Shown here one piece after another: positions 1-13,874 of a stretch of 64,000 bases of DNA; position 1 is the first letter of the stretch; each line of letters begins with the position of its first letter. Source of the stretch: Thermoplasmata archaeon. GTDB taxonomy: Archaea; Thermoplasmatota; Thermoplasmata; Lutacidiplasmatales; UBA184. The stretch lies in NCBI GenBank assembly GCA_030041175.1, contig JASHOK010000030.1, positions 12,401 through 76,400 of the forward strand, given 5' to 3'. The notes beneath the pieces were generated by a model that saw only the letters and a list, made by a program, of their open reading frames with translations, was not told where the DNA came from and ran no database searches. The translations under genes were made by a program, and so were the position numbers.

Positions 1-520
1 GCAGCACCAGTGCGAGCTTGGACCGGGCGTACGCCCGGTACCCCGAGTACTGACGTTCCCCCTGCAGGTTCTCAAAATCGAGGTGGACCCCCCGGTGGGC
101 GGCCGACGCGACGTTCACGACGCGGGCCGGGACACTCTCCTCGAGCCTCGAGACGAGCAGATGGGTGAGCAGAAACGGTGCCACGACGTTCAAGGCCCAC
201 GTTCGCTCGAATCCCTCGGAGGTCTGGCCGCGGGTCGAATACATCGCGCCGGCGTTGTTGAGCAGAACGTGAACCCGGGGGAGAGCCAACCGGAGCTCGC
301 TCGCGAGCCGGCGGACGTCGGCCTGGAGAGACAGGTCGGCGGCGAACGCACGGAGCCGGTCGTTGCCGGTCTCCCGCGAAATTGCGCCGGCAGCCGCTGC
401 CACCCGAGCGGGGTCGCGGCCTACCAGCGCGACCGTCGCGCCCTTGCGGGCCAGTTCCCGGGCGGCGACCTGGCCGATTCCCGACGTGGCTCCGGTGACG
501 ACCACGACCCGGTCCGTCAT
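1..520 (-). CDS. Short-chain dehydrogenase/reductase (SDR); C-terminus runs off the left edge of the window
   Basis: Own minus-strand translation from CAT at 518-520 gives MTDRVVVVTGATSGIGQVAARELARKGATVALVGRD...LLNNAGAM...YSGYRAYARSKLAL. It has the TGxxxGIG Rossmann motif, NNAG and the YxxxK catalytic motif. It is absent from the ORF track because there is no stop inside the window. An alternative in-frame ATG lies at 553. Confidence 0.85.
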   Translation of the reverse strand, partial: MTDRVVVVTGATSGIGQVAARELARKGATVALVGRDPARVAAAAGAISRETGNDRLRAFAADLSLQADVRRLASELRLALPRVHVLLNNAGAMYSTRGQTSEGFERTWALNVVAPFLLTHLLVSRLEESVPARVVNVASAAHRGVHLDFENLQGERQYSGYRAYARSKLALVL

Positions 521-563
521 CGGATGGTCGGACGCCCCGGCGGTAGTCTGCATGGTTCGGTAC

Positions 564-1013
564 TCAGCGGTACTTCCGGTAGTGGATCGTCCTCAGGAAG
601 GGGCGGAATCCGCCACTTTCGTAGATTCGGGCCGCGACCTGGTTTGTTTCATCGGTCGCCACGTACAGCAGCGGGATCTGCCGTTCGTTCACGTCCCGCA
701 GGAACCGGTCGACGAGCCGCTGCGCCACCCCCCATCCTTGGAACTCGGGGAGGACGCGGAGCTCCTCGAGCTGGGCGTACTGGTCCGCGCCCTTGTCGAA
801 CCACGGCTTCCGGCCCTCGAACCAGTACAGGAAGCCGGCGTAGGCCCCGTCCTTCTCGGCGATAAGCAAGCCGTCCCGGGGGATCCTCTCGAGCCGCTCC
901 GGAGTTGTAAATGGGTCCCACGGAGTGGTGCCGGTCGAGCCGTAATGCCGCGCGACCGTCGGGAGGTCCTCGGCCCGCGCTGGCCGGACCACGACTCCGG
1001 ACTCCGCCGCCAT
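564..1013 (-). CDS. GNAT family N-acetyltransferase (149 aa)
   Basis: C-terminal part of track ORF 564..1391. The internal ATG (CAT at 1011-1013) gives MAAESGVVVRPARAEDLPTV...LRVLPEFQGWGVAQRLV...ARIYESGGF, a typical GNAT A/B motif pattern. The upstream part of the ORF is Arg/Pro-rich shadow sequence. Confidence 0.8.
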   Translation of the reverse strand: MAAESGVVVRPARAEDLPTVARHYGSTGTTPWDPFTTPERLERIPRDGLLIAEKDGAYAGFLYWFEGRKPWFDKGADQYAQLEELRVLPEFQGWGVAQRLVDRFLRDVNERQIPLLYVATDETNQVAARIYESGGFRPFLRTIHYRKYR

Positions 1014-1045
1014 AGCCGGGACGAATCGGGCCGGGGAGATATGGC

Positions 1046-2803
1046 CTACGCAGAGCCGCGGGGCGACCGGCCCGAGAATCGGTGCACGAAGTAGACGGTA
1101 GTCCCGACCCCGCCGCCGACGACCAGCACGATGAGGAGATCGAGGGTCGAGAGACCGGCCTTGCCGGTCGGGCCCGCGGGGGGCGGAGTCGAGTGGGCCG
1201 TGAAGCTCACGTCGACGGTCACATTCGCGCCGTTGACCGTGAGACTTCCGGTCGCCTCCCCCGGTGTGTAGGTACCGACCGCGGGAACCCAGTAGCCGTA
1301 GGTCCCGTCCGGGACGCCGGTGTACACGAGGGACGGAGTCGCTCCCTGGTTCGGTGAGCTCGCGGAGCTGCTGTTCAGACTTACCGCCCACGTGCTGCTG
1401 CTCGGCAGGCCGACCTCGATGAACGTGACCGTGTAGCCGAGCGGAACCGGCTCGGAGGTGCTCCAGCTTATGTCGATCGTGACCGCCGAGCCCTCCACGA
1501 CGACGGTGCCCGCGGTTACGTTGGCCGTGTATCCCGCGACCGAACCGACCGACCAGGGATAGGTTCCGTTGGCCACGGCAAAGAGGATCGTGGAACTGGT
1601 CGTCGAGCTGGCGGTGCCGTTCAGAGTGACCGACCAGCTGGTCTCGCTCGGCAACCCAGACTCGACGAAACTCACGTTGTACGTGAGGCGGACCCAGGGA
1701 ACGACGACCGTGACATCGCTCCCGGCCACGGTGACGTTGCCGGAGTAGTTCGCGGTGTGGTACCCTGCGATCGGCGAGACCGTGTAGGCGTAGGTGCCGT
1801 TCACCGCTGTGAAGTCGAGGAAGACGAAATAGGCCGACTGCGTGACACCGTTGAACGTTACGGACCAGGTCACTCCGTCCAGCAGCCCGGTCTCCTCGAA
1901 CGAAACCTCGTAGGGCACCCCGAAGACTCCGACCTCGGTGAGGGGGGAGTTCATGGTAACCGTCGGCGTCGCGTTCGCACCGGTATAATTGCCGTCTCCC
2001 GTGCCGTTCCAGCTGACGAACTGATAACCGGCACTGGGCGACTCAGACAGGGAAACGGCGGACCCCGCCGGATACCATCCCGAGGAGGGGCTGACAGTGC
2101 CTCCGGTGCTCGGCATGGCTGCCGTCGTGAGGTAGTACGCCGTCGAGTACGGGATCGCGACCGTGACACTCGCGCCGGCGACCTCCACGGTGCCGTTGTT
2201 CACCACTGTGGAGTACTCGGTGCCGACTGTCCCGCTGATCTGGGCGGGGTCCGTGAAGATGTACGTGCCGTTCTGGACGGTGAAGGCGATCGACGTGGCG
2301 GCGGAGGTCGTGTTCGTGCCATCGAAGTCGACCCACCAAGAGCTCCCTGTGGGGAGACCGGACTCATTGAACCAGACCGAGTAGGTCGAGACGGCCGCCA
2401 CCGGCGTGAATGCGATGTACACCGTGGCCATGCAGCTATTCACCGTGACCTGCCCCGAGGACGGAACCGCCTGGTACCCGGCAACGGGCGTCACGGTGAA
2501 GTTGTAGGTCCCGGGGAGTTCGGAGAACACGATCTCGGTCGTGGTGCTCGACTGCGTTGAGCCCGCGAGGTCTACGCTCCAGGACGTACCGCTCGGCAGC
2601 CCACTCTCCACGAACGTGACGGGCTTCTCCCAAGCCGCCGTGAGCTGGCCCGGCTGGGACGTCGGCCCGCCGGCGGCACCGTAGGCCCCCAGCGCGATGA
2701 GCGCCGGGGCGCTCAGCAGCACCACAACGAAGGCGAGGACGTACAGCGCTCGGACCTGGGGGTTCGATACGACTGACTCGCGCGGCAGCTCCTGGGGTTT
2801 CAT
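1046..2803 (-). CDS. Surface-exposed repeat glycoprotein candidate with an N-terminal signal/anchor helix, five tandem ~75-90 aa beta-rich repeats plus one different Ig-like insert, a Thr/Pro linker and a C-terminal TM anchor
   Basis: Start MKPQELPRESVV... (CAT at 2801-2803), followed by the hydrophobic stretch ALYVLAFVVVLLSAPALIALGAYG. The repeated motif is F(V/N/E)ESGLP(S/T)G(T/S)SW(S/W)V...NGTY. There are at least 17 N-x-S/T sequons. The C-terminus is STPPPAGPTGKAG-LSTLDLLIVLVVGGGVGTTVYFV-HRFSGR. Confidence 0.8.
   Translation of the reverse strand: MKPQELPRESVVSNPQVRALYVLAFVVVLLSAPALIALGAYGAAGGPTSQPGQLTAAWEKPVTFVESGLPSGTSWSVDLAGSTQSSTTTEIVFSELPGTYNFTVTPVAGYQAVPSSGQVTVNSCMATVYIAFTPVAAVSTYSVWFNESGLPTGSSWWVDFDGTNTTSAATSIAFTVQNGTYIFTDPAQISGTVGTEYSTVVNNGTVEVAGASVTVAIPYSTAYYLTTAAMPSTGGTVSPSSGWYPAGSAVSLSESPSAGYQFVSWNGTGDGNYTGANATPTVTMNSPLTEVGVFGVPYEVSFEETGLLDGVTWSVTFNGVTQSAYFVFLDFTAVNGTYAYTVSPIAGYHTANYSGNVTVAGSDVTVVVPWVRLTYNVSFVESGLPSETSWSVTLNGTASSTTSSTILFAVANGTYPWSVGSVAGYTANVTAGTVVVEGSAVTIDISWSTSEPVPLGYTVTFIEVGLPSSSTWAVSLNSSSASSPNQGATPSLVYTGVPDGTYGYWVPAVGTYTPGEATGSLTVNGANVTVDVSFTAHSTPPPAGPTGKAGLSTLDLLIVLVVGGGVGTTVYFVHRFSGRSPRGSA
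1202..2620 (-). repeat. Coding tandem repeats inside the surface protein: five ESGLPxGxxWxV-type domains interrupted by one GGTVSPSSGWY...GYQFVSW-type domain
   Basis: Repeat units start near aa 84, 163, 319, 396 and 479 of the track ORF (VTFVESGLPSGTSWSV, YSVWFNESGLPTGSSWWV, YEVSFEETGLLDGVTWSV, YNVSFVESGLPSETSWSV, YTVTFIEVGLPSSSTWAV). The divergent insert spans aa 245-316. Confidence 0.75.
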
Positions 2804-3097
2804 CTCCTCCTCCGGGCGGCTCCCGGCCACGCGACCCAGCGCCCGGGACGCACCCGGCCCTCCGCGCACCCGGACTTCCAGGGTGGCGGAACGGCCTGCT
2901 TTCCCGGGCAGGTCGGCGGCCCTCAGCCGCGCGGCCGAGCATGCCGATGTCGAATAGATAACGACCCTGTCTGGACTGGATGACGGGGCGCTCAGAGTAA
3001 CGGAAAACCCTTCACCGGGACAGCCTCCTTACGGAGCCGGGTCGAGGCTACAGCCCGGGCCAAGTCCCATATGCACGCCGGTCTGCTCCGAGGCCTC

Positions 3098-4207
3098 ATG
3101 GAGGACCGCGTTCGGCGCATCTTCGACCGGATCGACTCGCAGCCGGACGCTTTGATCATCGCGAACGGAGACGACCGGCACGTCGACGCGAGCTTCTTCT
3201 ATCTGTTCGACGCCGTCGGGGGCGCGTTCGAGGGCGATGGCCTGGTCGCACGGCCGGACGGTACCCGGACCGTGCTCACCTCGCCGCTGGAGGCAGAAAC
3301 CGCGCACAACGCCGCGGAGCTCGATCGATCGGTGGAGGTCCGGGTCTGCCGGAGCCGCGCCGATGCGGTCGCGGCGCTCCGCGACCTCGTGGACGCTAAG
3401 GCTTCGGTCGGCCTCAACTTCCGCGAGCTCACCGAGGAGCGCTTCGGAGAACTCCGCCAGGCCCTCCCGGGGGTTCGCTGGGTGGACGCCTCGGACGCGA
3501 TCCAGAAGGCGCGACGCGTCAAAGACGCCGATGAGATAGAGCGGATCGAGCGAGCCGGACAGATCGTTTCCCGGGTGGCTACGGAGATCCCGTCGCTGCT
3601 CCGGCCCGGCGTTACGGAGCTCGATCTAGCGGCCGAGCTCGAGTATCGAATGGCCCGGGCCGGCGCATCGGGCCGGAGTTTCGAGACGATCATCGGCTTC
3701 GGAGCGCACTCGGCCGAGCCCCATTTTGCGCCGGGCGCGGCACGGCTCGAACGAGGCAACACCGTGGTCTGTGACTTCGGGGCCCTGCATCGCCGGTACG
3801 TAAGCGACCTGACACGGCCTTTCTATCTGGGACCCGAGGACCCGGAAATGCGCCGGGTTCACGCCACCGTTCTCGATGCCCAGAACGCGGCGCTGGCCGT
3901 CCTCCGCGCCGGGGCCCGGCCCTCGGAGGTCCATCGAGCGGCCCAGACGGTCATCGACGCGAGCCCGTGGAAGGGCCACTTTACACACCGGCTGGGCCAC
4001 TCGATCGGGTTGTCGGTGCACGATGGTCTGAGTCTCAACCTCGAGACGACTGACCCGCTCGAACCCGGCGAGACCGTGACGATCGAGCCCGGGATCTACC
4101 TGCCCGGCCGCGGAGGCGTTCGCATCGAGGATGACGTTCTGGTGACGGCGTCGGGCTATCGATTTCTGACCACCGCGCCCCGAGAGTATCTTGGTCCGGC
4201 GAACTAG
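3098..4207 (+). CDS. M24 family Xaa-Pro dipeptidase/aminopeptidase (paralogue 1)
   Basis: Pita-bread fold metal ligand contexts are present: VVCDFGA, YVSDLTR, LGHSIGLSVHD, IEPGIY, GGVRIEDDVLVT. The start was chosen at MEDRVRRIFDRI (ATG 3098) by alignment with the paralogue at 28681 (MKDRIRRIFAKL). Confidence 0.9.
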   Translation: MEDRVRRIFDRIDSQPDALIIANGDDRHVDASFFYLFDAVGGAFEGDGLVARPDGTRTVLTSPLEAETAHNAAELDRSVEVRVCRSRADAVAALRDLVDAKASVGLNFRELTEERFGELRQALPGVRWVDASDAIQKARRVKDADEIERIERAGQIVSRVATEIPSLLRPGVTELDLAAELEYRMARAGASGRSFETIIGFGAHSAEPHFAPGAARLERGNTVVCDFGALHRRYVSDLTRPFYLGPEDPEMRRVHATVLDAQNAALAVLRAGARPSEVHRAAQTVIDASPWKGHFTHRLGHSIGLSVHDGLSLNLETTDPLEPGETVTIEPGIYLPGRGGVRIEDDVLVTASGYRFLTTAPREYLGPAN

Positions 4208-4237
4208 GCTTCCTCGGCCGCTATTCGGCGAGGGCGG

Positions 4238-4245
4238 TTAAATAG
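4238..4245 (+). promoter_or_regulatory. Candidate TATA box (TTAAATAG) for the small wHTH gene
   Basis: This is the only AT-rich octamer in the GC-rich spacer. It lies 34-41 nt upstream of ATG 4279, consistent with an archaeal TATA at about -26 and a very short leader. Confidence 0.4.
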
Positions 4246-4278
4246 GGCTCCTCGCTCGGCCGCCCTCGGGGGACGAGC

Positions 4279-4503
4279 ATGGCGCTCGAGGACGAATTGG
4301 GGCCGCAGGCGGTCAAGATTTACAAGGCGATGAAGGACATGGGCTTCCTGACCGAGGATAAGATGGGCACGGCCGAGCGCATTACGATGGGCGCGAAGCT
4401 GCCCAAGAACATGGTCATGAACGCCCTTCAAGAGTTGCAGGCGAAGGGCTACGCCCGGCGCAAGGTGCGAGAGAAGGCCGCCGGCTATTACCTGGTTCGC
4501 TGA
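4279..4503 (+). CDS. Small (74 aa) winged-helix-like DNA-binding protein, function unknown
   Basis: MALEDELGPQAVKIYKAMKDMGFLTEDKMGTAERITMGAKLPKNMVMNALQELQAKGYARRKVREKAAGYYLVR. The helix-turn-helix plus beta-wing pattern (GYYLV) is present, codon usage is good, and there is its own TATA candidate. Confidence 0.6.
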   Translation: MALEDELGPQAVKIYKAMKDMGFLTEDKMGTAERITMGAKLPKNMVMNALQELQAKGYARRKVREKAAGYYLVR

Positions 4504-4507
4504 GCCT

Positions 4508-5461
4508 CTACGACTCGGCCCCCGCCGACCGGGGACCGAGCAGGCGCTCCAGCAAGCGACTCGTAGAGCGTAGCGTGACCTCGGTAACGGCACTGACGCG
4601 AGCGACCTGCGCACGGGATCGGCGTTCACCGCCGCGTTCTGAGGCGATGTAGATCAACGCGGCAACGAGACCGTGCGCCGACAAGCCCGAAACCTCCGGA
4701 CTTGTCTCCGTCTCCTTGAGCATCGTTTCGACAGAGGTCCGTACGTGCGGAGACAGGGCGAGTTCCTGCGCATAGCGCGCGAGGTAGACCCGAGGGTCTA
4801 CCGAGGGCACGATCGTGGACATTCCGCGACAGGCGACCTTGAACGCCCGGCCGACCTCAGAGCGCCGGGCACCGAGCACCTTGGAAACCTCGCCCAGAGT
4901 ACGAGGAACTGCGAAGCGGCGGCAGGCGGCGTAGACGGAAGCGCCGACGGCGGCCACCTGGCTGCGGCCCCGGTAGAGTCCCCGCTGGGTCGCATCCCGG
5001 AAGAATCGCTCCGCCTCGGAACGGATGACCGGCGGCAACGCCAGCCGATCGGAGGCCATGGCGATCGAGTCCCGGGCCTGGGAGCGCTCGAGGGGGTCTT
5101 CGAGTGCGCGTACCGTCTGGCGTTGTGCGACTCGCCGGAGGTGCTGGAATTCGTATCTCCGCTGCCAATCGAGCGGCCGGCCCTGTCCGTCCCGGGTGCC
5201 CTTCAGGATCGTCCCCAACTCGCGCCGAGAGGCCCCTGGAAGGCTGAACGGCCCAATCCCACGACCGGAACCCTGGGCACCAGGCGCGTCCCGTACTGGA
5301 GGTCCCGGGGTTACCAGCTCTGAACCTTCGAACACGAGTCCGCAGTCGGCACAGTGCGTCTCCAGACTGGCCGGATCCTGTACCCGTCGGCGGCTACCGC
5401 ACAGGGAGCAGGCGAGGAGGCTTGGTTCCCCCTCTGCCGGGGGCGTCCCCTGGTCGGACAC
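4508..5461 (-). CDS. tfb: Transcription initiation factor IIB (TFB)
   Basis: Zn-ribbon CSLCGSRRRVQDPASLETHCADCG, then two cyclin-fold repeats (IAMASDRLALPPVIRSEAERFFRDA...GRSQVAAVGASVYAACR...; YLARYAQELALSPHVRTSVETMLKE...LVAALIYIAS). No ATG lies upstream of the ribbon. The GTG at 5459-5461 sits about 25-33 nt downstream of the TATA element at 5485-5494, giving a 317-aa leaderless product. The 444-aa track ORF would overrun that promoter. Confidence 0.88.
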   Translation of the reverse strand: MSDQGTPPAEGEPSLLACSLCGSRRRVQDPASLETHCADCGLVFEGSELVTPGPPVRDAPGAQGSGRGIGPFSLPGASRRELGTILKGTRDGQGRPLDWQRRYEFQHLRRVAQRQTVRALEDPLERSQARDSIAMASDRLALPPVIRSEAERFFRDATQRGLYRGRSQVAAVGASVYAACRRFAVPRTLGEVSKVLGARRSEVGRAFKVACRGMSTIVPSVDPRVYLARYAQELALSPHVRTSVETMLKETETSPEVSGLSAHGLVAALIYIASERGGERRSRAQVARVSAVTEVTLRSTSRLLERLLGPRSAGAES

Positions 5462-5484
5462 GGTCGAGAGGCGAGACCTTGAAG

Positions 5485-5494
5485 TATATTTATA
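5485..5494. promoter_or_regulatory. Bidirectional TATA element TATATTTATA shared by tfb (minus) and the YkgJ-like gene (plus)
   Basis: Plus strand reads TTTATA (5489-5494), 34 nt before TTG 5528. Minus strand reads TATAAATA, 26-33 nt before GTG 5461. It is the only AT-rich block between the two divergent genes. Confidence 0.6.
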
Positions 5495-5527
5495 GAACTG
5501 ACTAAAGCCGCCCCGCTCGAACGGTCT

Positions 5528-6631
5528 TTGCCCCCGAGGTCCTGGGGCTCTCCGGGTGCTCAGGTGCTTGCGGGGGCAGACCTCTCCCTGCTCTCTGGCT
5601 TTCGATTTCAGTGCCTCCCCGGGTGCGGTCTCTGCTGCTTCACAACCCCGGCCGTCCGCCCATCCGAACGTCGACGGCTCGTCCAGCTGGAACCGGAGGC
5701 TCCTTTTCTCGATCGTGCAGACGGCTGGAGCCTTGTGGCCAGCCGCCCTGATGGCGGTGCTTGCCACTTCCTCCGGGACCTTCGGTGTTCTTGCCACGAC
5801 GTCCGCCCCGCCACTTGTGCGGAATTCCCCATAGTAGCCCACGCGTCGGACCGACTGCAGCTGAGCTTGGTCCTCGGCTGCCCCGGCGTCGAATTAGCCG
5901 CTCTGGACCGATGGGCTGAGGGTGTGCCTCCGGACGCACCGGCCGACGGGTTGGAAACCGAGCTGGCCGCCGTGGCCAGGGAGGTGGAGCGGGCGCTCGC
6001 CGAGGGGGAGCTGGCCAGAGCTGCGCGCCGATGGCACCGCCTGAGAGCGAGCATCCGGCGCTCAAGTGGAGGGGCCAGGGGGTCGGACCCGCGCGCTCCG
6101 CTGTACCCGGTGTCGGAAGATCTCATCCCCACCGACCTGGCCAAAGCGCAGTTGCTCGATACCGAGGGTGATCGCATCGATCTCGACGGGCTACCGCTCG
6201 CCTACGATGCTCGGTGGGGCCGCTTGGCATGGCGGAGTCACCCCGGGGGGGTCGAGTTCCTCTCCTTGGAGGCAACGGGAGGCGCCGGCCCCGCCCGCGA
6301 GGTCCTCCCCCTTCCCGCCCGCTCGCCGGGGCTTGACGGACCGGCGAGACTCCGCCTTCGCGGTTACCTCGGATACCGGCTAGCTCGAGACCAGAGTCTC
6401 GGGACGGCATACGAGGAACTCCGTAGTACGGGAGAGTCCCAGGTCTCCCTTCGGGACGTACTTCTGGCGGACCTCCAGTCGACCGCCGGTCAGGTACTTT
6501 CGCTGGCGATCCTACGCCGAGCGCTGACCACGGATCGCCGGGGCCCACTGACCCGGGAGGATATCGACCTCGGGATCCGAGCGACGGATATGGATGCGCT
6601 CGACCGTCCCACCGTAGGTCTCCGGCTGTAG
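5528..6631 (+). CDS. YkgJ/UPF0153-like cysteine-cluster (CxxCxxCC) protein with a long C-terminal extension
   Basis: N-terminal FQCLPGCGLCC...GGACHFLRDLRCSCHDVRPATCAEFP matches the putative Zn/Fe-chelating CxxCxxCC domain pattern. TTG start at 5528; GTG alternative at 5564. Confidence 0.6.
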   Translation: MPPRSWGSPGAQVLAGADLSLLSGFRFQCLPGCGLCCFTTPAVRPSERRRLVQLEPEAPFLDRADGWSLVASRPDGGACHFLRDLRCSCHDVRPATCAEFPIVAHASDRLQLSLVLGCPGVELAALDRWAEGVPPDAPADGLETELAAVAREVERALAEGELARAARRWHRLRASIRRSSGGARGSDPRAPLYPVSEDLIPTDLAKAQLLDTEGDRIDLDGLPLAYDARWGRLAWRSHPGGVEFLSLEATGGAGPAREVLPLPARSPGLDGPARLRLRGYLGYRLARDQSLGTAYEELRSTGESQVSLRDVLLADLQSTAGQVLSLAILRRALTTDRRGPLTREDIDLGIRATDMDALDRPTVGLRL

Positions 6632-6651
6632 CGGACTTCCGCGACCACGAA

Positions 6652-7302
6652 GTGTATTTCCGTGCTGAGGGCCCTCGGACGGGCGTGCGGCCGTGGCTCG
6701 TCGTGGTCGGCATTGTCTTCCTGACGCTCGGCATCGGAAGCGCCACGACGCTGTATCTCGGTGACCAGGGCGCCGTCTCGTCCAGCAACGGGACGGGGCC
6801 GATCTCGTTCCCGCTCGGCTCGAACTCGAGCGAGGTGCTAACCCTGCAAGGGACCAACGGGACCACCGAGCATTTCCGCCTCCAGTGGGCGGCTTCGTCG
6901 CCGCTCTCCGTGGAACTCGAGTCCTCGGCGGGGTGCTCGTCCGACGGTACGACCTGCTGGCCGTCCGACGTACTCGTCCAATGGTCCGGGAGCACGTCGG
7001 GCGATTGGACCGGAGCCGGTCCGTTTCACTATCCGTTGCTGTGCGTCTTGAAAAACCTGAACTCGGACCCTTCGGCCGTGACGGTGAGTGGCCGGGCCTC
7101 GGCCGAGACCTCGGTGCATGAGACGCTGGTCGTGTCGCTGGTGCTCGGCCTCAGCGCCGCCGCGCTATTCGTCGTTGGCGGACTCGCCGTCTTCCTGGGA
7201 CTCTTCCTTGCCTCGGACCCCTACGGGCCACCGGCACCGCCGGTCTCCCGTTCCGCCGACGATGTTGACGAGATCCTGGACGAACCGGGTCCTCGTCACT
7301 GA
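6652..7302 (+). CDS. Hypothetical bitopic membrane/extracellular protein (N- and C-terminal TM helices, N-glycosylation sequons)
   Basis: WLVVVGIVFLTLGIGSATTLYL near the N-terminus and LVVSLVLGLSAAALFVVGGLAVFLGLFLA near the C-terminus. NGT/NSS/NGT sequons lie between them. GTG start 6652 (alternative GTG 6685). Confidence 0.55.
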   Translation: MYFRAEGPRTGVRPWLVVVGIVFLTLGIGSATTLYLGDQGAVSSSNGTGPISFPLGSNSSEVLTLQGTNGTTEHFRLQWAASSPLSVELESSAGCSSDGTTCWPSDVLVQWSGSTSGDWTGAGPFHYPLLCVLKNLNSDPSAVTVSGRASAETSVHETLVVSLVLGLSAAALFVVGGLAVFLGLFLASDPYGPPAPPVSRSADDVDEILDEPGPRH

Positions 7303-9059
7303 CCCCAGAACGGCTGTGTCGCGCGGCGGATCCGCAGCACCTCGTCCAGTACCGACCGCTCGGAGTCCGACAGGGGCCGATCCTTCAACGCCCGGGCGGC
7401 CGACTCCGGTATCGTAACGTAGAGAACGTCCCCCTCGGCCAGCGTTCGCCCGACCGTGGCGCCGTCAATCGAGGCGGCAAGCTCTGAGCCCTCGTCGGCC
7501 TCCTTCACCGATTCATTATCCTTCTGCAGACTGCGGAGGACTCCGACCTCCTCGCCGCGGGTCGACATCAACCGCACCCCCGGTCGGAGCTGTCCGGAGA
7601 GGACCTTCACGCCCACGACCGCGGGCTTCGATCTCCGGAATACGAAGCCGGGCAGCACCTGCAGCTTGGCCGGGTGCACGATCTCCTGCCGTCGCTCCGC
7701 CTCCAGCGACTGGCGAACGGAGTCCCGCCACTTCGAGTACTCTTCGAGCAGCTGATACATCACCTGGCCGGAGAAGACCTTCACATGATCCCGTAGGGAC
7801 TCGGGCACGGCATCCGGGAGTGTCGCGACGTTGAACGCCAGGATCGCCCGGTCGGTCGCTTCCTTCACATCGGCCATGCGAAGCACCATGGGCCGGTTCA
7901 CCGGTCCCACCTCCGCGATGTGCACCGGAACCGGGGCCTCCCGGCACTCGAAGGCGAGGGCCTCGAGGCCGCCGAGGGTGTCGGCCGCCAGCGCGACTCC
8001 GCTGTCGGCGAACTCGGCGACGGGCTGAGACTCGCGCGCCAGCTCCGCGAGGGTCGTCGCGCGTTCCTCCGGCGAGCGAACCGTCTTGACCAGCCCGCCC
8101 GGCAACGCCCGGTCGACCTCCGGGGCGGATAGATACACCCCGGCGGCGGCCCGGACGCTGGGGACACTCTCGACCTTCTTCGTCGGCGCTCCCCGGCGCG
8201 GACCCGCGGGTGGCGGGCGGTAGAGGCCGCGCACACGGCTCGAGAACGGGCCGCCGGTCCCCGTGATCACGACCTCGTCGCCCACGTGGAAAGCACCCTG
8301 ATAGACGATCAGGCTCGCTACGGGTCCGAGGCCGCGCTGCTCCGTCCGCTCGAGGACAGTGCCCTCCCCGGGTGCGTCGGCGAGGGCGAGCTCCTTTTCG
8401 AGGAAGCGCTGCGAGAGGCCGACCAGGAGCGCCACGAGCTCGGCCACGCCGACGCCCGACTTCGCCGAGAGAGGCACGACCCCCAGGTTGCGGGTGAAGT
8501 CGCTGACTCGGTCGTAGCGCTCGGCGGAGAACCCGAAGGAGAGCAGCTCTTCGACGACCGTGTAGAGCCGGGAGTCGAGCTGCTTCTCGTAGGAGGGCCC
8601 GCACCGCTGAAGTTGCGTCTTCAGCGCCGTGTGCCCGGCCGGCTCCCGCCAGCCCTCGACGAGGTCGATCTTTGTCAAGGCCACCGCGAAGGGCGTCTTT
8701 TCACGACGCAGGATCTGGATCGACTCCCGGGTCTGCGGCATTACCCCCTCGTTCACATCGACGACGAGCACCGCCAGGTCGGCCAGAGCTCCTCCGCGCC
8801 GCCGCATGGTCTCGAAGGAACGGTGGCCGGGGGTGTCGATCATGAGGAAACCCGGAATGGCGACCTGGCCCGGTTGAAGGAGCCCGTGCGACAGCCGGAG
8901 CAATGTGACCTGGGGCACTTCGAACGCCCCAATGTGCTGGGTGATGCCCCCGGCCTCGTGCGGCGCCCGGGAGGCCCCCGTAATCCGGTCGAGCAGCGTA
9001 GTCTTGCCGTGGTCGACGTGGCCGAGCAGCGACACGATCGGCTGTCGCAGGTCGGACAC
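7296..9059 (-). CDS. infB: Translation initiation factor aIF5B (IF-2 family GTPase)
   Basis: LRQPIVSLLGHVDHGKTTLLDRI (G1), IDTPGHRSF (G3), LTKIDL (G4), followed by domains II-IV. The 915-aa track ORF is an artefact: its first ~310 aa are Arg/Ser/Pro-rich and lie out of frame over dinB. GTG at 9057-9059 gives M-SDLRQPIVS, as in typical aIF5B N-termini. An alternative GTG at 9104 would overlap the dinB stop by 20 nt. Confidence 0.9.
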   Translation of the reverse strand: MSDLRQPIVSLLGHVDHGKTTLLDRITGASRAPHEAGGITQHIGAFEVPQVTLLRLSHGLLQPGQVAIPGFLMIDTPGHRSFETMRRRGGALADLAVLVVDVNEGVMPQTRESIQILRREKTPFAVALTKIDLVEGWREPAGHTALKTQLQRCGPSYEKQLDSRLYTVVEELLSFGFSAERYDRVSDFTRNLGVVPLSAKSGVGVAELVALLVGLSQRFLEKELALADAPGEGTVLERTEQRGLGPVASLIVYQGAFHVGDEVVITGTGGPFSSRVRGLYRPPPAGPRRGAPTKKVESVPSVRAAAGVYLSAPEVDRALPGGLVKTVRSPEERATTLAELARESQPVAEFADSGVALAADTLGGLEALAFECREAPVPVHIAEVGPVNRPMVLRMADVKEATDRAILAFNVATLPDAVPESLRDHVKVFSGQVMYQLLEEYSKWRDSVRQSLEAERRQEIVHPAKLQVLPGFVFRRSKPAVVGVKVLSGQLRPGVRLMSTRGEEVGVLRSLQKDNESVKEADEGSELAASIDGATVGRTLAEGDVLYVTIPESAARALKDRPLSDSERSVLDEVLRIRRATQPFWGQ

Positions 9060-9084: not shown

Positions 9085-10251
9085 TTATCGTTTCGGCGAA
9101 GCACCCGGTTCGTCCGGGGCCCCGTCCAACGGCGCGCGCCCGCGCCGGCCGGCGCGTAGGTAGCGGTCCAGCCGGCGTTGGGTCCCCACCCGGGGGCTGA
9201 GCCCACCGAGGCGGACCGACAGGAGCCGCACCCGACGGTTTCGTCCGGTCCTCTCCTCCTGTAGCAGCTCATGCAGCAGACGGGCTGCCTCCGCAACGCT
9301 CGGCTCCGTCCCTTCCCGCGCGGCCCCCAGGGAACGGCCCCGCTGGACCTGCTGGAAGTCCTCCCACCGGATGCGTACGGTGAGGTTCTCGTATCGGAAC
9401 CCCTCGGACTGGACTCCCACGGCTGCTTCGCGCGCGAGATCGCGAACGGCGTCCGCGAGTGTCGCTTCGTCCCGCGTATCCTCGGGTAGGGTCCGGTCCG
9501 AACTCCGGGACTTGGGCGGCCCAACGTCGAGCTCCGTCGATTCGTGGGGGGAACCGGACGCCAGCGCCCGGAGCTCCTCACCGAACGTGCCCAACCGCCG
9601 GAGCTGCGAGGTCGAGTTGCCGGTACGCAGCTGACCGATGGTCTCGATGCCGAGCCCCTGGAGCACGGCCTCGGTCTTGGGTCCAACGCCCGGGATCGAC
9701 CGTACCGGGAGCGGGGCGAGGAAGTCCGCGGTTTCGTTCGGTGGGACCACGCGGATCCCCGCCGGTTTGGCAGTGTCGGTGGCGATCTTGGCGACGGTCC
9801 GATAGGGGGAAATGCCGATCGACGCGGGGAGCTGCAGCTCCGAGTGCAGGGTCGCCTGGATACGGTCGCCGAGGTCGCGAGCCTCGATGGCACTGGGAAG
9901 GTCGACCCAGACCGCCGCCTCGTCGATGCTGAACGGAAGCACGTCCGGACTAAAGCGGAACAGCACGGCGCGGACCTCCCGGGCGGCCCGTTCGTACTTC
10001 GGAAAGTCGGCCGGGATCCAGACCGCCGCTGGGCAGAGCGCATGGGCCCGGCTCACGGGCATCGCGCTGCGGAGGCCGAACCTCCGGGCCTCATAACTGG
10101 CCGAGAGCACTACGCCCCGAACGTGCCCCTGCCGGGGGTCGGGACCCACGACCACCGGCAGGCCCCGAAGGTCGCCCCGGTCCCGTAGCTCGCACGAGAC
10201 GTAGAAGGCGTCCATGTCGACGTAGAGACACCAGCGCATACGCCGTTCCAT
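9085..10251 (-). CDS. dinB: Y-family DNA polymerase IV (DinB/Dpo4-like)
   Basis: WCLYVDMDAFYVSCELRD (catalytic DxD...F/Y), VVLSASYEARRFGLRSAMP, FSIDEAAVWV, and the little-finger region. A second ATG lies at 10239. Confidence 0.9.
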   Translation of the reverse strand: MERRMRWCLYVDMDAFYVSCELRDRGDLRGLPVVVGPDPRQGHVRGVVLSASYEARRFGLRSAMPVSRAHALCPAAVWIPADFPKYERAAREVRAVLFRFSPDVLPFSIDEAAVWVDLPSAIEARDLGDRIQATLHSELQLPASIGISPYRTVAKIATDTAKPAGIRVVPPNETADFLAPLPVRSIPGVGPKTEAVLQGLGIETIGQLRTGNSTSQLRRLGTFGEELRALASGSPHESTELDVGPPKSRSSDRTLPEDTRDEATLADAVRDLAREAAVGVQSEGFRYENLTVRIRWEDFQQVQRGRSLGAAREGTEPSVAEAARLLHELLQEERTGRNRRVRLLSVRLGGLSPRVGTQRRLDRYLRAGRRGRAPLDGAPDEPGASPKR

Positions 10252-10311
10252 TCCTGGGGAAGGGGTGTAACCCCGGAGAGGAGGGGGTGAAACGGGGTAC
10301 GCTGCGCGGAC

Positions 10312-11037
10312 TTAGAAGCTGTTCCCGAAATCGACCGCCTTCGAATCGACCCGGAGGCCCGACTGCGTGATCGTGTACGGTTGCACGCTGCGGGCGTGGG
10401 CGGTGCGCCGCATCTTGAGGACCCGGAGCGCGAGGCCCACTCGGTGGCCGTCCTGGGCCGTGCTGTAGCCGAGCAGGATGACCCCGTCTGCCACGTACTC
10501 CGACAACCCATCCCGGCTCGTCTCGGGGTGGAGCGGGTTTGCCTCGGCCGTGAAAACGGTGGTGGCACCGGCGGCGCGACACGCCGCGGCCAGTGTGAAG
10601 AGCGTGTTCCGGCGGCCGGCCTCGGTATCGCTCAGCATGTTGAGCAGCGAGACCGAATCGACGACGATCCGCTTGACGCCGTAGCTGGCGAGCTCCTTGG
10701 GAAGGTCGCTCTGGATCCGGTGCAGATTCCGGTCCGTCTCCTTCGGGTCCAGCCGGAAGAATCGCAGCGACTGCTTTGCCAGGGCATCCTCGACCGGCCA
10801 GCCGAACTGCTTCGCGGAGTCGGTCAAGGCTCTCGCGTCCTCTTCCAACGAGAGGAAGAGGCCCTTCTCTCCTTGGGCAAGGCCCGCGAAGAGGAATTGC
10901 AGGCCGAAGCAGGTCTTGCCCGTCCCCGGAAGCCCCGTCACGAGCACGACGTGGCCGGCGGGCAGGCCGCCGCCGAGCATCTCGTCCAGACCGGCAATGC
11001 CGGTCGAGACCCGAACGACGCCGTCAGATTCGCTCAT
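10312..11037 (-). CDS. KaiC/aRadC-like single-domain RecA-superfamily ATPase (intact P-loop)
   Basis: VSTGIAGLDEMLGGGLPAGHVVLVTGLPGTGKTCFGLQFL (Walker A GxxGTGKT), RIVVDSVSLL (Walker B), and the C-terminal LRVLKMRRTAH motif typical of KaiC-like proteins. Confidence 0.85.
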   Translation of the reverse strand: MSESDGVVRVSTGIAGLDEMLGGGLPAGHVVLVTGLPGTGKTCFGLQFLFAGLAQGEKGLFLSLEEDARALTDSAKQFGWPVEDALAKQSLRFFRLDPKETDRNLHRIQSDLPKELASYGVKRIVVDSVSLLNMLSDTEAGRRNTLFTLAAACRAAGATTVFTAEANPLHPETSRDGLSEYVADGVILLGYSTAQDGHRVGLALRVLKMRRTAHARSVQPYTITQSGLRVDSKAVDFGNSF

Positions 11038-11944
11038 ACTGAGTGGTCACCAACCCGGTCAGCGAGCTGACCCGAATGACGAACCGGCCCTGGTGTTCGT
11101 GCGGCACGTGCGAGAGCACGGGCATGAACTTCTCGATGAGCATCGTCCGCTGCCGGCTCGACCGGGAAGGATGCGTCGACCAGGTGAAGGAGAAGACGCC
11201 GTCCACGGAGTCCGCGAGCGCCTGCTCCGTCGCTGCCGGTGCCACTCCCCGCGAGAGCAGGAGATAGACCACACCGCCCCAGTCCTTGGCTCGGCGCCGA
11301 AGCCCCTTGACGAGCGTCAGGATCGCCTCGGTCTCGAGGTTGCGTCGGACGAGCAGGTCGGTGAGAGAGTCGAGGATGACGACGTTCCCGTTCCCGTCTT
11401 GCTCGACGGCCTGAACGATCGCCGCGAGGGGGTCGGTCGCCGTCGAGGGTCCGCCGCCGGCCGCCAGCTCGGCCAGCAGGGGTACCGAGGTCTGCGCCCA
11501 GTTCCGTGGGACGACGGAGTCCGAGAAGTAGATCGACGAGAGGTCGTGGAAGATCAGGTGCCGGGTGAAGGACTCCGTGTGGGTCGGTTCGAACGAGATC
11601 TCGACCTCTCGGGTGACCTGATCCTTCGATCGGGTCAGGCTGATGTAGGTGACGCCGGCTGGATAGACGAAGTTTCCCTTGACGCTGCCGAGGTAGAACT
11701 TGTGCAGTCGTTCGGCGTCATAGGAGAACATGAGGTGGGTGGCCGAGGTGAGGGCGAACTCCTGATGTCCGGAGCCAGCCTCCCCGGTCAGCAGGACAAC
11801 GGATCCTACGGGAACTCCGCCGGCAACGGAGTCGAAGTCCCCTACGCCCGTGGGGATGCGGGCGTCCGTGGGTGCCGCGGTCGAAACGCGCAGCGCCGGC
11901 AGGGAGGAGATCGGCAGGGACCTTGCTGGAAGCTGCGCCGACAT
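11024..11944 (-). CDS. KaiC/aRadC-like paralogue with a degenerate Walker A (predicted non-catalytic partner)
   Basis: ATG (CAT at 11942-11944) gives MSAQLPARSL...IPTGVGDFDSVAGGVPVGSVVLLTGEAGSGHQEFAL...NVVILDSLTDLL. The architecture matches the downstream gene, but the P-loop Lys-Thr is replaced by His-Gln. It overlaps the next gene by 14 nt. Confidence 0.7.
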   Translation of the reverse strand: MSAQLPARSLPISSLPALRVSTAAPTDARIPTGVGDFDSVAGGVPVGSVVLLTGEAGSGHQEFALTSATHLMFSYDAERLHKFYLGSVKGNFVYPAGVTYISLTRSKDQVTREVEISFEPTHTESFTRHLIFHDLSSIYFSDSVVPRNWAQTSVPLLAELAAGGGPSTATDPLAAIVQAVEQDGNGNVVILDSLTDLLVRRNLETEAILTLVKGLRRRAKDWGGVVYLLLSRGVAPAATEQALADSVDGVFSFTWSTHPSRSSRQRTMLIEKFMPVLSHVPHEHQGRFVIRVSSLTGLVTTQYERI

Positions 11945-11984
11945 TCGGGTCCCGGAACCATGGTCTCGACCGCCGGGTCCGGTA

Positions 11985-13331
11985 TTAGAACTCTCGTGTA
12001 GAGTCGCTCCCGAGAGCTGCGGTTGCGCCGGATTTCCGGAACTCGCGGAGCAGCACGGTAGCGTAGCTACCTCTCGGAAGGTTGAACTCGAAGCGGAGCC
12101 CCGCGGCCTCGGGCGGACTCTCCCACTCCAGGCTGAGGGTCGGGTCGGGGCACCAGAGCGGTCGCCAGTTTCCCGCACTCGCCAGATCCGGCGCCGAGCG
12201 AAGCTCGAAACTGGCCCGGCATACATGGTCCGCGTCCAGGAGCTCCTCGAGAAGGGGCCCCGCTGGTCCCTCGAGTCGGGGGGTTTCGTACCCTACGAGC
12301 GGCCCGGCCAGTCGCGCCTTGCCTTCCTGGACCAGGGCCCGGGCTTCGGACAGATTGTCCGGCGTGACCGGGACCGGGTCCCGACCGGGGATGGTACCGT
12401 CGCGGGCGACTCGGAGAAGCCAATCCCCGGATGCCGGTTCTACGAGGGAGAGTCCGGCCGCGAATCGGCGGGACAGATATCGATTGAACAGGTAAGACTG
12501 ATAGGCGTGCACAAAGAGTGTCCGGAGCGGATGCCCCAGGGCGCGCAACGCCTGCGCAGCTGACTGGCCCCGGGCCAGGTGATCGAGGATTTGGCGCTCG
12601 AACTGCAGCGCCGGCGGAAACTCGCGAAGCGCCCGGGCGGGGTCCCGGTGCTCCGCGAACGCAGCTCGAGCCTCGCTGCCCAACGGGGTTTCGCCAGGCG
12701 CGAGTTCGCAGAGGTAGATGTCCACGGCACCGGCGGCGTCGCCCTGCACGAGGGCCCGGCCGACCGAGTGCGTGACCGGACGCACCTCGCCGAAGCGCTG
12801 GACTCCGAAGAAGTTCGGAAACCCGTGGAGTCCGTGGAGCTCCTCCTTGAGGCGCCGAGCCCGAGAGACCGCCTCCTCCGGCGGCGAGGCGACCTCCCGG
12901 AGCACGATGCGAAAACGATTCCCGTAGTGATGGCCCAGCACGAGCTCCTCCCGCGTCCGGTAGACCTCGCGAACCTCGACTCGTGGGAGGGAGACCTGGC
13001 CGGGTTGGGGGGGCGCTCCGCGGTACGACAGGATCCGTTCCGCCACGGCGCGGCGGTCCTTCGTGCCGGCCCATCGGATGGCATGCGTCGGGATTCCGAG
13101 TGCCTGCGCGAGCCGGTGCGTGAGCTCGTGCTGTTCCCAGCCTTGACTCTCCACCCGCAGGACGGTGATCGGGCCGTCGGGGTCGGGCCGGGGATAGGCC
13201 GACAGCTCTTCGACGCGGAAGTCGGCAGCCTCTCGTTTCAGTCGTCCGCCGAGCCCGGGCTGCGCCGTCGCGTAGAACTCAAGCCCCAGGAGCCGTTCTT
13301 CCTCCGGCGGGAGCCAACCGGGGCCTGCCAT
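11985..13331 (-). CDS. truD: tRNA pseudouridine(13) synthase TruD/Pus7 family
   Basis: MAGPGWLPPEEERLLGLEFYAT...GGRLKREAADFRVEE...IRWAGTKDRRAVAERILS (catalytic GxKDxxA Asp)...NFFGVQRFG. The start was reassigned to the ATG at 13329-13331. Confidence 0.88.
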   Translation of the reverse strand: MAGPGWLPPEEERLLGLEFYATAQPGLGGRLKREAADFRVEELSAYPRPDPDGPITVLRVESQGWEQHELTHRLAQALGIPTHAIRWAGTKDRRAVAERILSYRGAPPQPGQVSLPRVEVREVYRTREELVLGHHYGNRFRIVLREVASPPEEAVSRARRLKEELHGLHGFPNFFGVQRFGEVRPVTHSVGRALVQGDAAGAVDIYLCELAPGETPLGSEARAAFAEHRDPARALREFPPALQFERQILDHLARGQSAAQALRALGHPLRTLFVHAYQSYLFNRYLSRRFAAGLSLVEPASGDWLLRVARDGTIPGRDPVPVTPDNLSEARALVQEGKARLAGPLVGYETPRLEGPAGPLLEELLDADHVCRASFELRSAPDLASAGNWRPLWCPDPTLSLEWESPPEAAGLRFEFNLPRGSYATVLLREFRKSGATAALGSDSTREF

Positions 13332-13394
13332 GCGTATAGGGCGCCTTGAGCGGAAAGGAGATAGCCCCAGCGTACGGTTCTCAGTCAAAGACCC

Positions 13395-13874
13395 ATGATA
13401 CGGGCGACAGCCCGCGTCCTCCGCAACGTTATCGAAATGGAGGTCGGCGGGGAAACCTGGAACTGCGCACCGGTGGCCGAGACCGAGTCCGGTGGCTTGT
13501 CGCGTCGCATCGCGCTCTTGTTTTCCACGCGGTACGAGACGACCCGAACCTCCGATGGCGGCCAGGTCCACTCGACCGTTACGTATCATCCGAAAAAGGA
13601 CGAGATCCTCATCCAGGTCGGTGAGCAAAAGTGGCGCACGAAGTCGACGGTCTTCGGACCGATCACCTTCGATTACGGCGGGGCGGCCTACACGATCACC
13701 GAAAAGCTGACGGGCAAGTTCGGGGTCCTAAAAGGGTCCGAACTGGTTGCTTCCGGCGAGCTGCTGTTCCGGACCGCCGTGATCCGGGACTACCCACCCG
13801 AGATGGAGGGATTTCTCGCGAATCTCGCGCTGGGCTACCTGATCCGGACCTTGTGGTGGGCTACGCTGCGGTGA
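13395..13874 (+). CDS. Hypothetical protein (159 aa, beta-rich, no recognised motif)
   Basis: The ORF has coding-like composition and fills the gap between truD and the DUF1634 gene. The only support is ORF length and the lack of a competing frame. Confidence 0.45.
   Translation: MIRATARVLRNVIEMEVGGETWNCAPVAETESGGLSRRIALLFSTRYETTRTSDGGQVHSTVTYHPKKDEILIQVGEQKWRTKSTVFGPITFDYGGAAYTITEKLTGKFGVLKGSELVASGELLFRTAVIRDYPPEMEGFLANLALGYLIRTLWWATLR

Follow-up and report, generated by a model that had tools for sequence, protein, structure and literature searches.

We analysed a 64,000-nucleotide (nt) stretch of DNA from a Thermoplasmata archaeon (GenBank assembly GCA_030041175.1, contig JASHOK010000030.1, positions 12,401 to 76,400), referred to here as the window, with the focus on two overlapping genes for single-domain proteins of the KaiC family, an upstream "dead" copy with a degenerate ATPase site and a downstream "active" copy. 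The window has a G+C content of 67% and is most closely related to metagenome-assembled genomes (MAGs) of uncultured Thermoplasmata from soil and peat, some of which are named Lutacidiplasmatales. Between positions 7296 and 13628, five minus-strand genes are arranged head to tail in the order TruD, dead KaiC-like protein, active KaiC-like protein, DinB and aIF5B. The features of this region, beginning with the pair itself, are the following:

11024–11944, minus strand: gene for the dead copy, an inactivated KaiC (iKaiC) and KaiC-fold pseudo-ATPase of 306 amino acids; ATG at 11944, stop codon TGA at 11026–11024, Walker A position GEAGSGHQ at 11785–11762
10312–11037, minus strand: gene for the active copy, a single-domain KaiC-like ATPase of 241 amino acids; ATG at 11037, stop codon TAA at 10314–10312, Walker A GLPGTGKT at 10935–10912
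11981–12000, minus strand: promoter of the pair, of the B recognition element (BRE)/TATA type; TTCTAATA at 11990–11983, with the TruD stop codon inside
10252–10311, minus strand: 60-nt spacer between the active gene and dinB; CCCCGTTTCAC at 10297–10287 and a weak TATA-like GTTACAC at about 10271–10265
9085–10251, minus strand: dinB, Y-family DNA polymerase IV (Pfam IMS, IMS_HHH and IMS_C); stop codon at 9087–9085
11985–13628, minus strand: TruD tRNA pseudouridine synthase, the upstream neighbour (Pfam TruD, E 3e-118, matching from residue 114 of the open reading frame)
7296–9059, minus strand: aIF5B (infB; Pfam GTP_EFTU, IF-2 and GTP_EFTU_D4), translated from GTG 9059

An earlier note, made from the letters of this DNA, had described a 14-nt overlap between the two KaiC-like genes, the motif GEAGSGHQ in the upstream product, GLPGTGKT and RIVVDSV in the downstream product, the landmark NVVILDSLTDLL, and a 60-nt spacer ahead of dinB. 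All of these are present on the minus strand, with the overlap at 11037–11024. The upstream gene includes GVGDFDSVAGGVPVGSVVLLTGEAGSGHQ as well as NVVILDSLTDLL, and the motifs of the active copy also comprise SLEE, DSVSLL and LKMRRT.

The dead copy was compared with KaiC by profile, by predicted structure and by alignment to its neighbour. The Pfam KaiC profile (PF06745) matched it with 31.4 bits, against a gathering threshold of 26.6, at the N-terminal profile positions 1–37 only; the same profile was matched at E ≤ 0.01 by 35 of 35 diverse members of the dead family. A structural model was predicted with AlphaFold2 from an alignment of 57 sequences, an earlier run with 16 close sequences having been discarded at a predicted local distance difference test score (pLDDT) of 54. 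The retained model has a pLDDT of 82.9, and the top 50 PDB matches found for it with Foldseek were all KaiC, mostly the CI domain, at E values of about 1e-13 and target template-modelling (TM) scores of 0.74–0.80, with 0.78 for the leading hits to KaiC CI. The two proteins of the pair share about 20% identity. BLASTP detected similarity between them over residues 29–65 only, whereas an hhalign comparison of the two orthologue profiles gave a probability of 94.6% and mapped the catalytic elements one to one. Description of the two copies as paralogous carries this caveat: homology over the full length becomes apparent only by profile comparison or structure prediction.

A catalytically competent RecA/KaiC ATPase was defined by four elements: a Walker A motif of the form GxxxxGK[ST], a Glu pair after strand 2, a Walker B Asp and a trans-acting Lys/Arg finger. 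In the hhalign alignment, Walker A reads GLPGTGKT in the active copy and GEAGSGHQ in the dead copy, with the Lys replaced by H60 and the Thr by Q61. The catalytic Glu pair of SLEED is replaced by T104 and R105 in SLTRS. At Walker B, DSVSL corresponds to DSLTD, in which the Asp (D192) is retained, and on the strand carrying the K-x-R finger LKMRR corresponds to IEKFM, in which K272 is retained and the Arg has become M274. The active copy thus has all four elements and would count as competent; the dead copy would not. The dead family as a whole has the Walker consensus GExGAGxxEF, and a Lys occupies the Walker position in just 3 of the 354 family proteins retrieved. A Glu-Phe after the P-loop is invariant, as are dozens of residues in total across the family, and the conserved inserts F.DLS..YF.DS.VP..W are not found in the active copy. 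Across 80 species the dead copy is conserved at 57–92% identity. Together, the alignments and the model indicate that the upstream copy is a true pseudo-ATPase with a KaiC CI fold, which has lost all the residues for hydrolysing ATP or for completing the active site of a neighbour, and that the degeneracy of the P-loop is a stable trait of the whole dead family. The prediction of a non-catalytic KaiC-fold protein was in this respect correct: the Lys and Thr of Walker A, the Glu pair and the Arg finger are gone, and the fold matches KaiC CI.

The active copy could be placed more directly. PF06745 matches it over the full length with 188.7 bits (E 1.3e-55). The nearest named family is TIGR03880 (KaiC_arch_3, the AF_0351 family), whose score of 223.6 bits lies below the cut-off of 249.45. 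Ranked by HMMER scores, its PDB matches were KaiC with 196 bits (6e-57), SSO2452 with 81, ArlH with 28, RadB with 25.5 and RecA with about 25. Because the score for KaiC is far above those for SSO2452, RadB and RecA, the designation "KaiC-like" is supported, and the placement in the aRadC group of RadA paralogues, which the earlier note had offered alongside it, is not. The NCBIfam models point the same way: RadB models scored 22.8 bits against a cut-off of 278 and 19.6 against 172.4, and RadA models about 20 bits against cut-offs of 259–361, so that the cut-offs are missed roughly tenfold. The circadian KaiC equivalogs were likewise not reached (147.5 against 408 bits for NF006799 and 103.3 against 546.25 for TIGR02655), and each of the two proteins is single-domain. 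A search with the PADLOC defence models gave no meaningful match, the sole one being a P-loop match of 16.8 bits.

The best match of both proteins in sequence and structure is thus cyanobacterial KaiC, specifically its CI domain, and the active copy shares with it Walker A, the catalytic Glu pair, Walker B and the K-x-R finger. The cyanobacterial protein is a fusion of CI and CII, whereas here the domains are single, one of them is dead and encoded by a separate gene, and there is no KaiA or KaiB nearby. The aRadC/SSO2452-type RadA paralogues of Sulfolobales and RadB resemble the pair in their RecA-superfamily membership, their single domain and their length of about 230–250 amino acids. In an alternative reading, the pair would mediate recombination or repair in general, as a Rad55-Rad57-like or aRadC-like heterodimer or ring of RecA-superfamily paralogues that acts on DNA or on RadA filaments, with no specificity for DinB. 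In its favour, the fold is that of the RecA superfamily, and pairs of RecA-family proteins with one ATPase-weakened partner are a known theme among Rad51 paralogues. The ranking just given, in which KaiC is far ahead of SSO2452, RadB and RecA, and the tenfold shortfall for RadA and RadB argue against it; the gene neighbourhoods that also bear on it are considered below.

The arrangement of the pair is strongly conserved. The order TruD-dead-active is invariant in 80 species-representative genomes of the clade to which the window belongs, and the 14-nt overlap is retained in 77 of 78 related species-level genomes, so the pair is not a chance feature of this contig. In about 75 related loci, the A+T content peaks at 71%, over a background of about 25%, at 38–47 nt upstream of the ATG of the dead gene, and a promoter consensus ending in CGAnnCGAGCCTACTAATAC lies about 40 nt ahead of that ATG. 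Only four stretches across 6–16 kb of the window have A or T at 7 or more of 8 positions, and the corresponding TTCTAATA is among them. By this sequence pattern the pair has its own conserved archaeal promoter of the BRE/TATA type. Twice in the region a stop codon falls inside the TATA-like box of the next gene, the TAA of TruD in TTCTAATA and the TAA of dinB in GATAAAG.

Rates of evolution were compared for TruD, the dead copy, the active copy, DinB and aIF5B in 48 clade genomes (a subset of L003–L080). By mean Kimura distance, the active copy is the slowest-evolving of the five (0.27), followed by aIF5B (0.39), the dead copy (0.43), TruD (0.59) and DinB (0.63). Both copies are under strong purifying selection. 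The active KaiC-like protein evolves more slowly than the translation factor aIF5B, which is unusual for a protein without an assigned function.

The pair extends well beyond this clade. In five distant loci (L081, L082, L084, L085 and L087), dead orthologues at 30–45% identity are followed by the active orthologue at +3 to +8 nt; with L167 and L169 included, the spacing ranges from −4 to +8 nt. A metagenome scan anchored on an alignment of the active copy recovered 51 paired loci, and every active orthologue with at least 41% identity had the dead gene directly upstream. The dead-family profile also retrieves proteins of Methanoculleus, and in the cultured Methanomicrobiales species Methanoculleus bourgensis (LT549891, 193–204 kb) the pair is present with a 4-nt overlap. 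This distribution makes the pair an ancient two-gene unit common to Thermoplasmatota and Methanomicrobia. Separation of the two genes was seen in haloarchaea-like loci, where iKaiC stands alone (L083, L086 and L168); Haloferax, too, has iKaiC homologues without an active partner. In two of these (L086 at 1560–5614 and L168 at 3990–7595) the partnerless iKaiC is part of a conserved string with a GHMP kinase, an EzrA/DUF948-like protein, DUF8135 and a TFIIS-type zinc ribbon. Conversely, about 33 loci from hypersaline metagenomes (L126–L162) carry homologues of the active copy at 37–42% identity with no dead partner upstream; these may derive from a split of the pair and be the haloarchaeal equivalents of the active gene, or they may be a different paralogue.

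The stand-alone iKaiC genes, together with the low identity between the two proteins, could be taken to mean that the genes are independent, or that the dead copy is a decaying duplicate without a role and the overlap incidental. The dead copy is, on the contrary, intact and conserved about as well as aIF5B across 48 species; it has the dozens of invariant residues described above, and the order and spacing of the pair are held across lineages of 30–48% identity. We regard this explanation as extremely improbable.

The earlier note had gone further and proposed that the pair is dedicated to the translesion polymerase encoded next to it. On this reading it would be an accessory of the Y-family polymerase, as a loader, a regulator or a mutasome-like component, co-transcribed with dinB and serving translesion synthesis after damage. 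Several features would suit it. Both ATPase-like proteins belong to the RecA superfamily, and in most of the 80 clade genomes dinB comes next on the same strand. In the window, the 60-nt gap contains no strong AT-rich element, the sole candidate being the weak GTTACAC, about 31 nt ahead of a second in-frame ATG of dinB at 10239, which fits the homologues better than the ATG at 10251. In most clade genomes the distance is 37–215 nt, and in L012, L017 and L020 the two genes overlap by 4 nt. In these three the GTG of dinB overlaps the stop codon of the active gene (GTGA), so co-translation of dinB is very likely there. In the same three loci (at 9591–9594 in L012), dead, active and dinB genes are all translationally coupled via this GTGA overlap.

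Examined more widely, the linkage does not hold. It is limited to loci whose active protein is at least 63% identical to that of the window, and dinB is absent from all 31 of the more distant paired loci with at least 1.2 kb of downstream flank (about 5–6 kb inspected). Even among 72 species of the clade, 11 have a gap of at least 636 nt, with 4.8 kb as the maximum. Two of the inserts were examined, and both hold metabolic genes on the opposite strand: L006 has an acetolactate-synthase-like enzyme, and L061 has isocitrate lyase, malate synthase and a methyltransferase. TruD, which has no plausible functional link to the pair, is at least as constantly adjacent to it as dinB, lying directly upstream wherever a clade locus extends far enough. 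An AT-rich heptamer is found in about 20 loci at 33–46 nt ahead of an in-frame ATG of dinB, the same spacing as for the TATA element of the pair. When A+T content upstream of dinB was profiled position by position from the assigned starts, no peak appeared. A separate dinB promoter thus seems likely in many genomes, tentatively so in that it is drawn from heptamer-to-ATG distances only. Finally, the pair and dinB show no excess covariation in rate.

Nor does the polymerase look like a degenerate partner. It retains the motifs DMDAFY and SIDEA, and it scored 254.4 bits with NCBIfam PRK02406, against a cut-off of 256; from these features it looks like a normal, catalytically intact Pol IV and not like an ImuB-type dead polymerase. 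The analogy that had been drawn with the bacterial ImuA-ImuB-DnaE2 system captures a real likeness, an inactive RecA-like protein clustered with a Y-family-type protein. It breaks down in that the RecA-like partner is here of the KaiC type and has an active twin, the linkage is not conserved, and no ImuB-like dead polymerase, DnaE2 or other polymerase gene is found in the region around the pair.

Because the neighbourhood is not conserved in relatives, the dedicated dinB module fails as a general statement, and as a conserved module it is largely refuted: the linkage is confined to the clade of the window, and the pair has a promoter of its own. The position of dinB is probably the inherited gene order of one Thermoplasmata clade. 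Read-through from the pair into dinB is possible in the window and is not a conserved property of the pair. Overall we consider it highly unlikely that the pair is a dedicated accessory of the polymerase.

Further observations concern this part of the locus. The sequence CCCCGTTTCAC (10287–10297), just past the stop codon of the active gene, is conserved in the closest relatives (L001, L002, L004, L005, L007 and L018); it does not have the form of an oligo-T terminator or of a clear TATA box. In L004 (about 9640–9865) the N-terminus of DinB (MRWCLYVD...) is apparently broken by about 150 nt before the gene resumes; an insertion, a frameshift or faulty assembly of that MAG might explain this. 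On its other side, dinB had been said to abut or overlap infB. It abuts, with a gap of 25 nt and no overlap, and dinB-aIF5B adjacency is a feature of the closest relatives only, about 2.5 kb separating the two genes in most relatives. The TATA-like GATAAAG at 9089–9083, which holds the dinB stop codon, lies about 30 nt ahead of GTG 9059, most likely the start of aIF5B, a position compatible with a leaderless aIF5B transcript. For TruD, the true start is probably near 13328.

Outside the clade, the pair is found in several different neighbourhoods. In one context, LonB, NMNAT and CinA lie upstream, with an opposite-strand aminotransferase and purC downstream, and at least 17 loci have purC no more than 3 kb away. 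In three loci (L087, L112 and L119), FEN1 follows on the same strand, 13–19 nt after the pair, and is itself followed by opposite-strand PolD DP2. In four to five others, T2SSE is upstream and PmbA/TldD downstream, both on the opposite strand. In Methanoculleus bourgensis, T2SSF and T2SSE adjoin the pair divergently, and in L169, a MAG labelled "Euryarchaeota archaeon", a single strand (251–7350) encodes PilB3 (T2SSE), T2SSF, DUF7289, iKaiC, KaiC and a second KaiC. L169 thus has a three-gene KaiC-family set joined to a type IV pilus motor. Four metagenomic loci resemble this pilus-linked arrangement. Among the contexts of the pair, the type IV pilus motor is the only one that is both recurrent and functionally suggestive. 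LonB, for its part, recurs a few kb or less from the pair in a Thermoplasmatota group and in Methanomicrobiales, lineages that are very distant from each other: it lies upstream on the same strand in L081, L105, L107–L109, L114, L121 and L164, and downstream on the opposite strand in L147, L163 and L167. This could be an ancestral remnant or chance.

These neighbourhoods return us to the repair mediator. DNA enzymes do occur next to the pair in several lineages, namely DinB, FEN1 with PolD DP2, Lhr (convergent) and Hel308 (at 3.5 kb). Their number exceeds expectation only marginally and reflects a small set of independent lineages, the commonest neighbours are metabolic or proteolytic (purC, aminotransferase, LonB and CinA), and the type IV pilus genes provide yet another context. 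With the KaiC affinity of the active copy added, we consider a general role in recombination or repair unlikely, if a good deal less so than a dedication to DinB.

The pair was also compared with KaiC-like proteins of known association. ArlH (FlaH) resembles it in being a single-domain KaiC-like protein; it acts by docking to another machine, with the archaellum ATPase ArlI as its partner, and not as an enzyme on its own, and its gene is linked to a motor of the T2SSE/T2SSF type. ArlH retains the Walker A lysine. Both proteins of the pair score below the cut-off of the ArlH model NF052589 (56.7 bits for the active and 24.5 for the dead copy, against 215), and there are no arl genes in the window. 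To our knowledge, no obligate dead-then-active pair with a conserved overlap has been characterised experimentally. Makarova, Galperin and Koonin (mBio, 2017, as cited in PMC5847659) reportedly treat archaeal KaiC-family ATPases together with inactivated homologues and KaiC hubs.

An "inactivated KaiC-like ATPase domain" (iKaiC) is already a described category (PMC5847659), and arCOG01172 and arCOG01173 have been reported near VirB11/TadC operons in Methanomicrobia (Makarova, Koonin and Albers 2016, PMC4858521). Among KaiC-like proteins, CirA and ArlH serve the archaellum as regulators or partners (PMC10983859). The statement that the pair is not a characterised module is accordingly true in the experimental sense and needs amending in another, since inactivated KaiC domains and these KaiC families had been catalogued (PMC5847659, PMC4858521). 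The archaeal KaiC and iKaiC proteins resemble those of the window in being single-domain, in having one ATPase site disrupted and in their distribution across Euryarchaeota, with T2SSE and T2SSF beside the pairs of Methanoculleus and L169. The pair is presumably orthologous to arCOG01172/arCOG01173 of Methanomicrobia, as the dead-family profile retrieves Methanoculleus and the order and spacing beside T2SSE/T2SSF are the same. Unlike the iKaiC/KaiC genes of Methanomicrobia, the pair of the window and most pairs of Thermoplasmatota have no pilus locus nearby, and TruD/DinB, purC, LonB/CinA or FEN1 instead. A search for T2SSE, T2SSF, LonB, CinA, FEN1, PmbA and purC found none of them in the window. 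The other genes near the pair encode TauE, MFS, peptidases, a CBS-HTH regulator and a radical SAM protein, none of them functionally related. The pair belongs to a known and experimentally unstudied class, archaeal KaiC with inactivated KaiC.

Based on these results, we think it reasonably probable that the pair functions within the archaeal KaiC network as an ATPase switch, in a regulatory or accessory capacity. We propose that the two genes make up an operon of their own, an ancient and autonomous unit of the archaeal KaiC family, in which iKaiC would be translated first and the active ATPase would be translationally coupled to it. The two proteins would thus be made in a fixed ratio and could then assemble into a hetero-oligomer, either as an alternating ring or as two stacked rings resembling a split two-domain KaiC. 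Turnover of ATP would be left to the downstream subunit only, while the dead subunit would act as a scaffold or, through its conserved inserts, as a surface for docking partners. By analogy with ArlH, CirA and GvpD, such a complex would most likely be an ATP-driven regulatory switch, a reading we prefer because the same pair stands beside PilB/PilC in Methanomicrobia, and it is probably not a DNA-repair factor.

Several observations weigh against this proposal. The tight and conserved coupling to an intact ATPase gene fits the hetero-oligomeric partner that the earlier note had predicted, and the hetero-oligomer itself is an inference. In a mirror-tree comparison of the 48 genomes, all correlations were high (r 0.82–0.90), the partial correlations were small and unspecific, and there was no excess between the dead and active copies (partial r 0.14). 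Among long members of the family (P0149, P0157, P0201 and P0210) there were no iKaiC-KaiC fusions. In the window, the surroundings of the pair contain no pilus gene or other signalling gene, and the assignment to arCOG01172/01173 is drawn from a description in the literature. Lastly, an enzyme that is a client of PCNA follows the pair tightly on the same strand in two independent lineages, DinB in one and FEN1 (L087, L112 and L119) in the other, and in L012, L017 and L020 the GTG of dinB overlaps the active-gene stop. Because DinB and FEN1 follow the pair so closely, and one subclade has dinB in the operon, we retain a residual DNA-related role among the explanations. In its specific form, the iKaiC/KaiC complex would have been recruited secondarily in the clade as an ATP-dependent regulator or loader of DinB, with FEN1 as the corresponding client elsewhere and L012, L017 and L020 as the fully integrated state; we would give this little credence.

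If the coupling to dinB were nevertheless functional, the pair would give archaea their first example of an accessory ATPase devoted to a translesion polymerase. On the evidence, it falls instead within a large and mostly uncharacterised network of archaeal KaiC-family proteins. For the uncultured clade itself, the promoter consensus CGAnnCGAGCCTACTAATAC could aid the annotation of its MAGs, and the presence of the pair in cultured Methanoculleus offers a tractable entry to the use of pseudo-ATPase subunits in KaiC-type assemblies.

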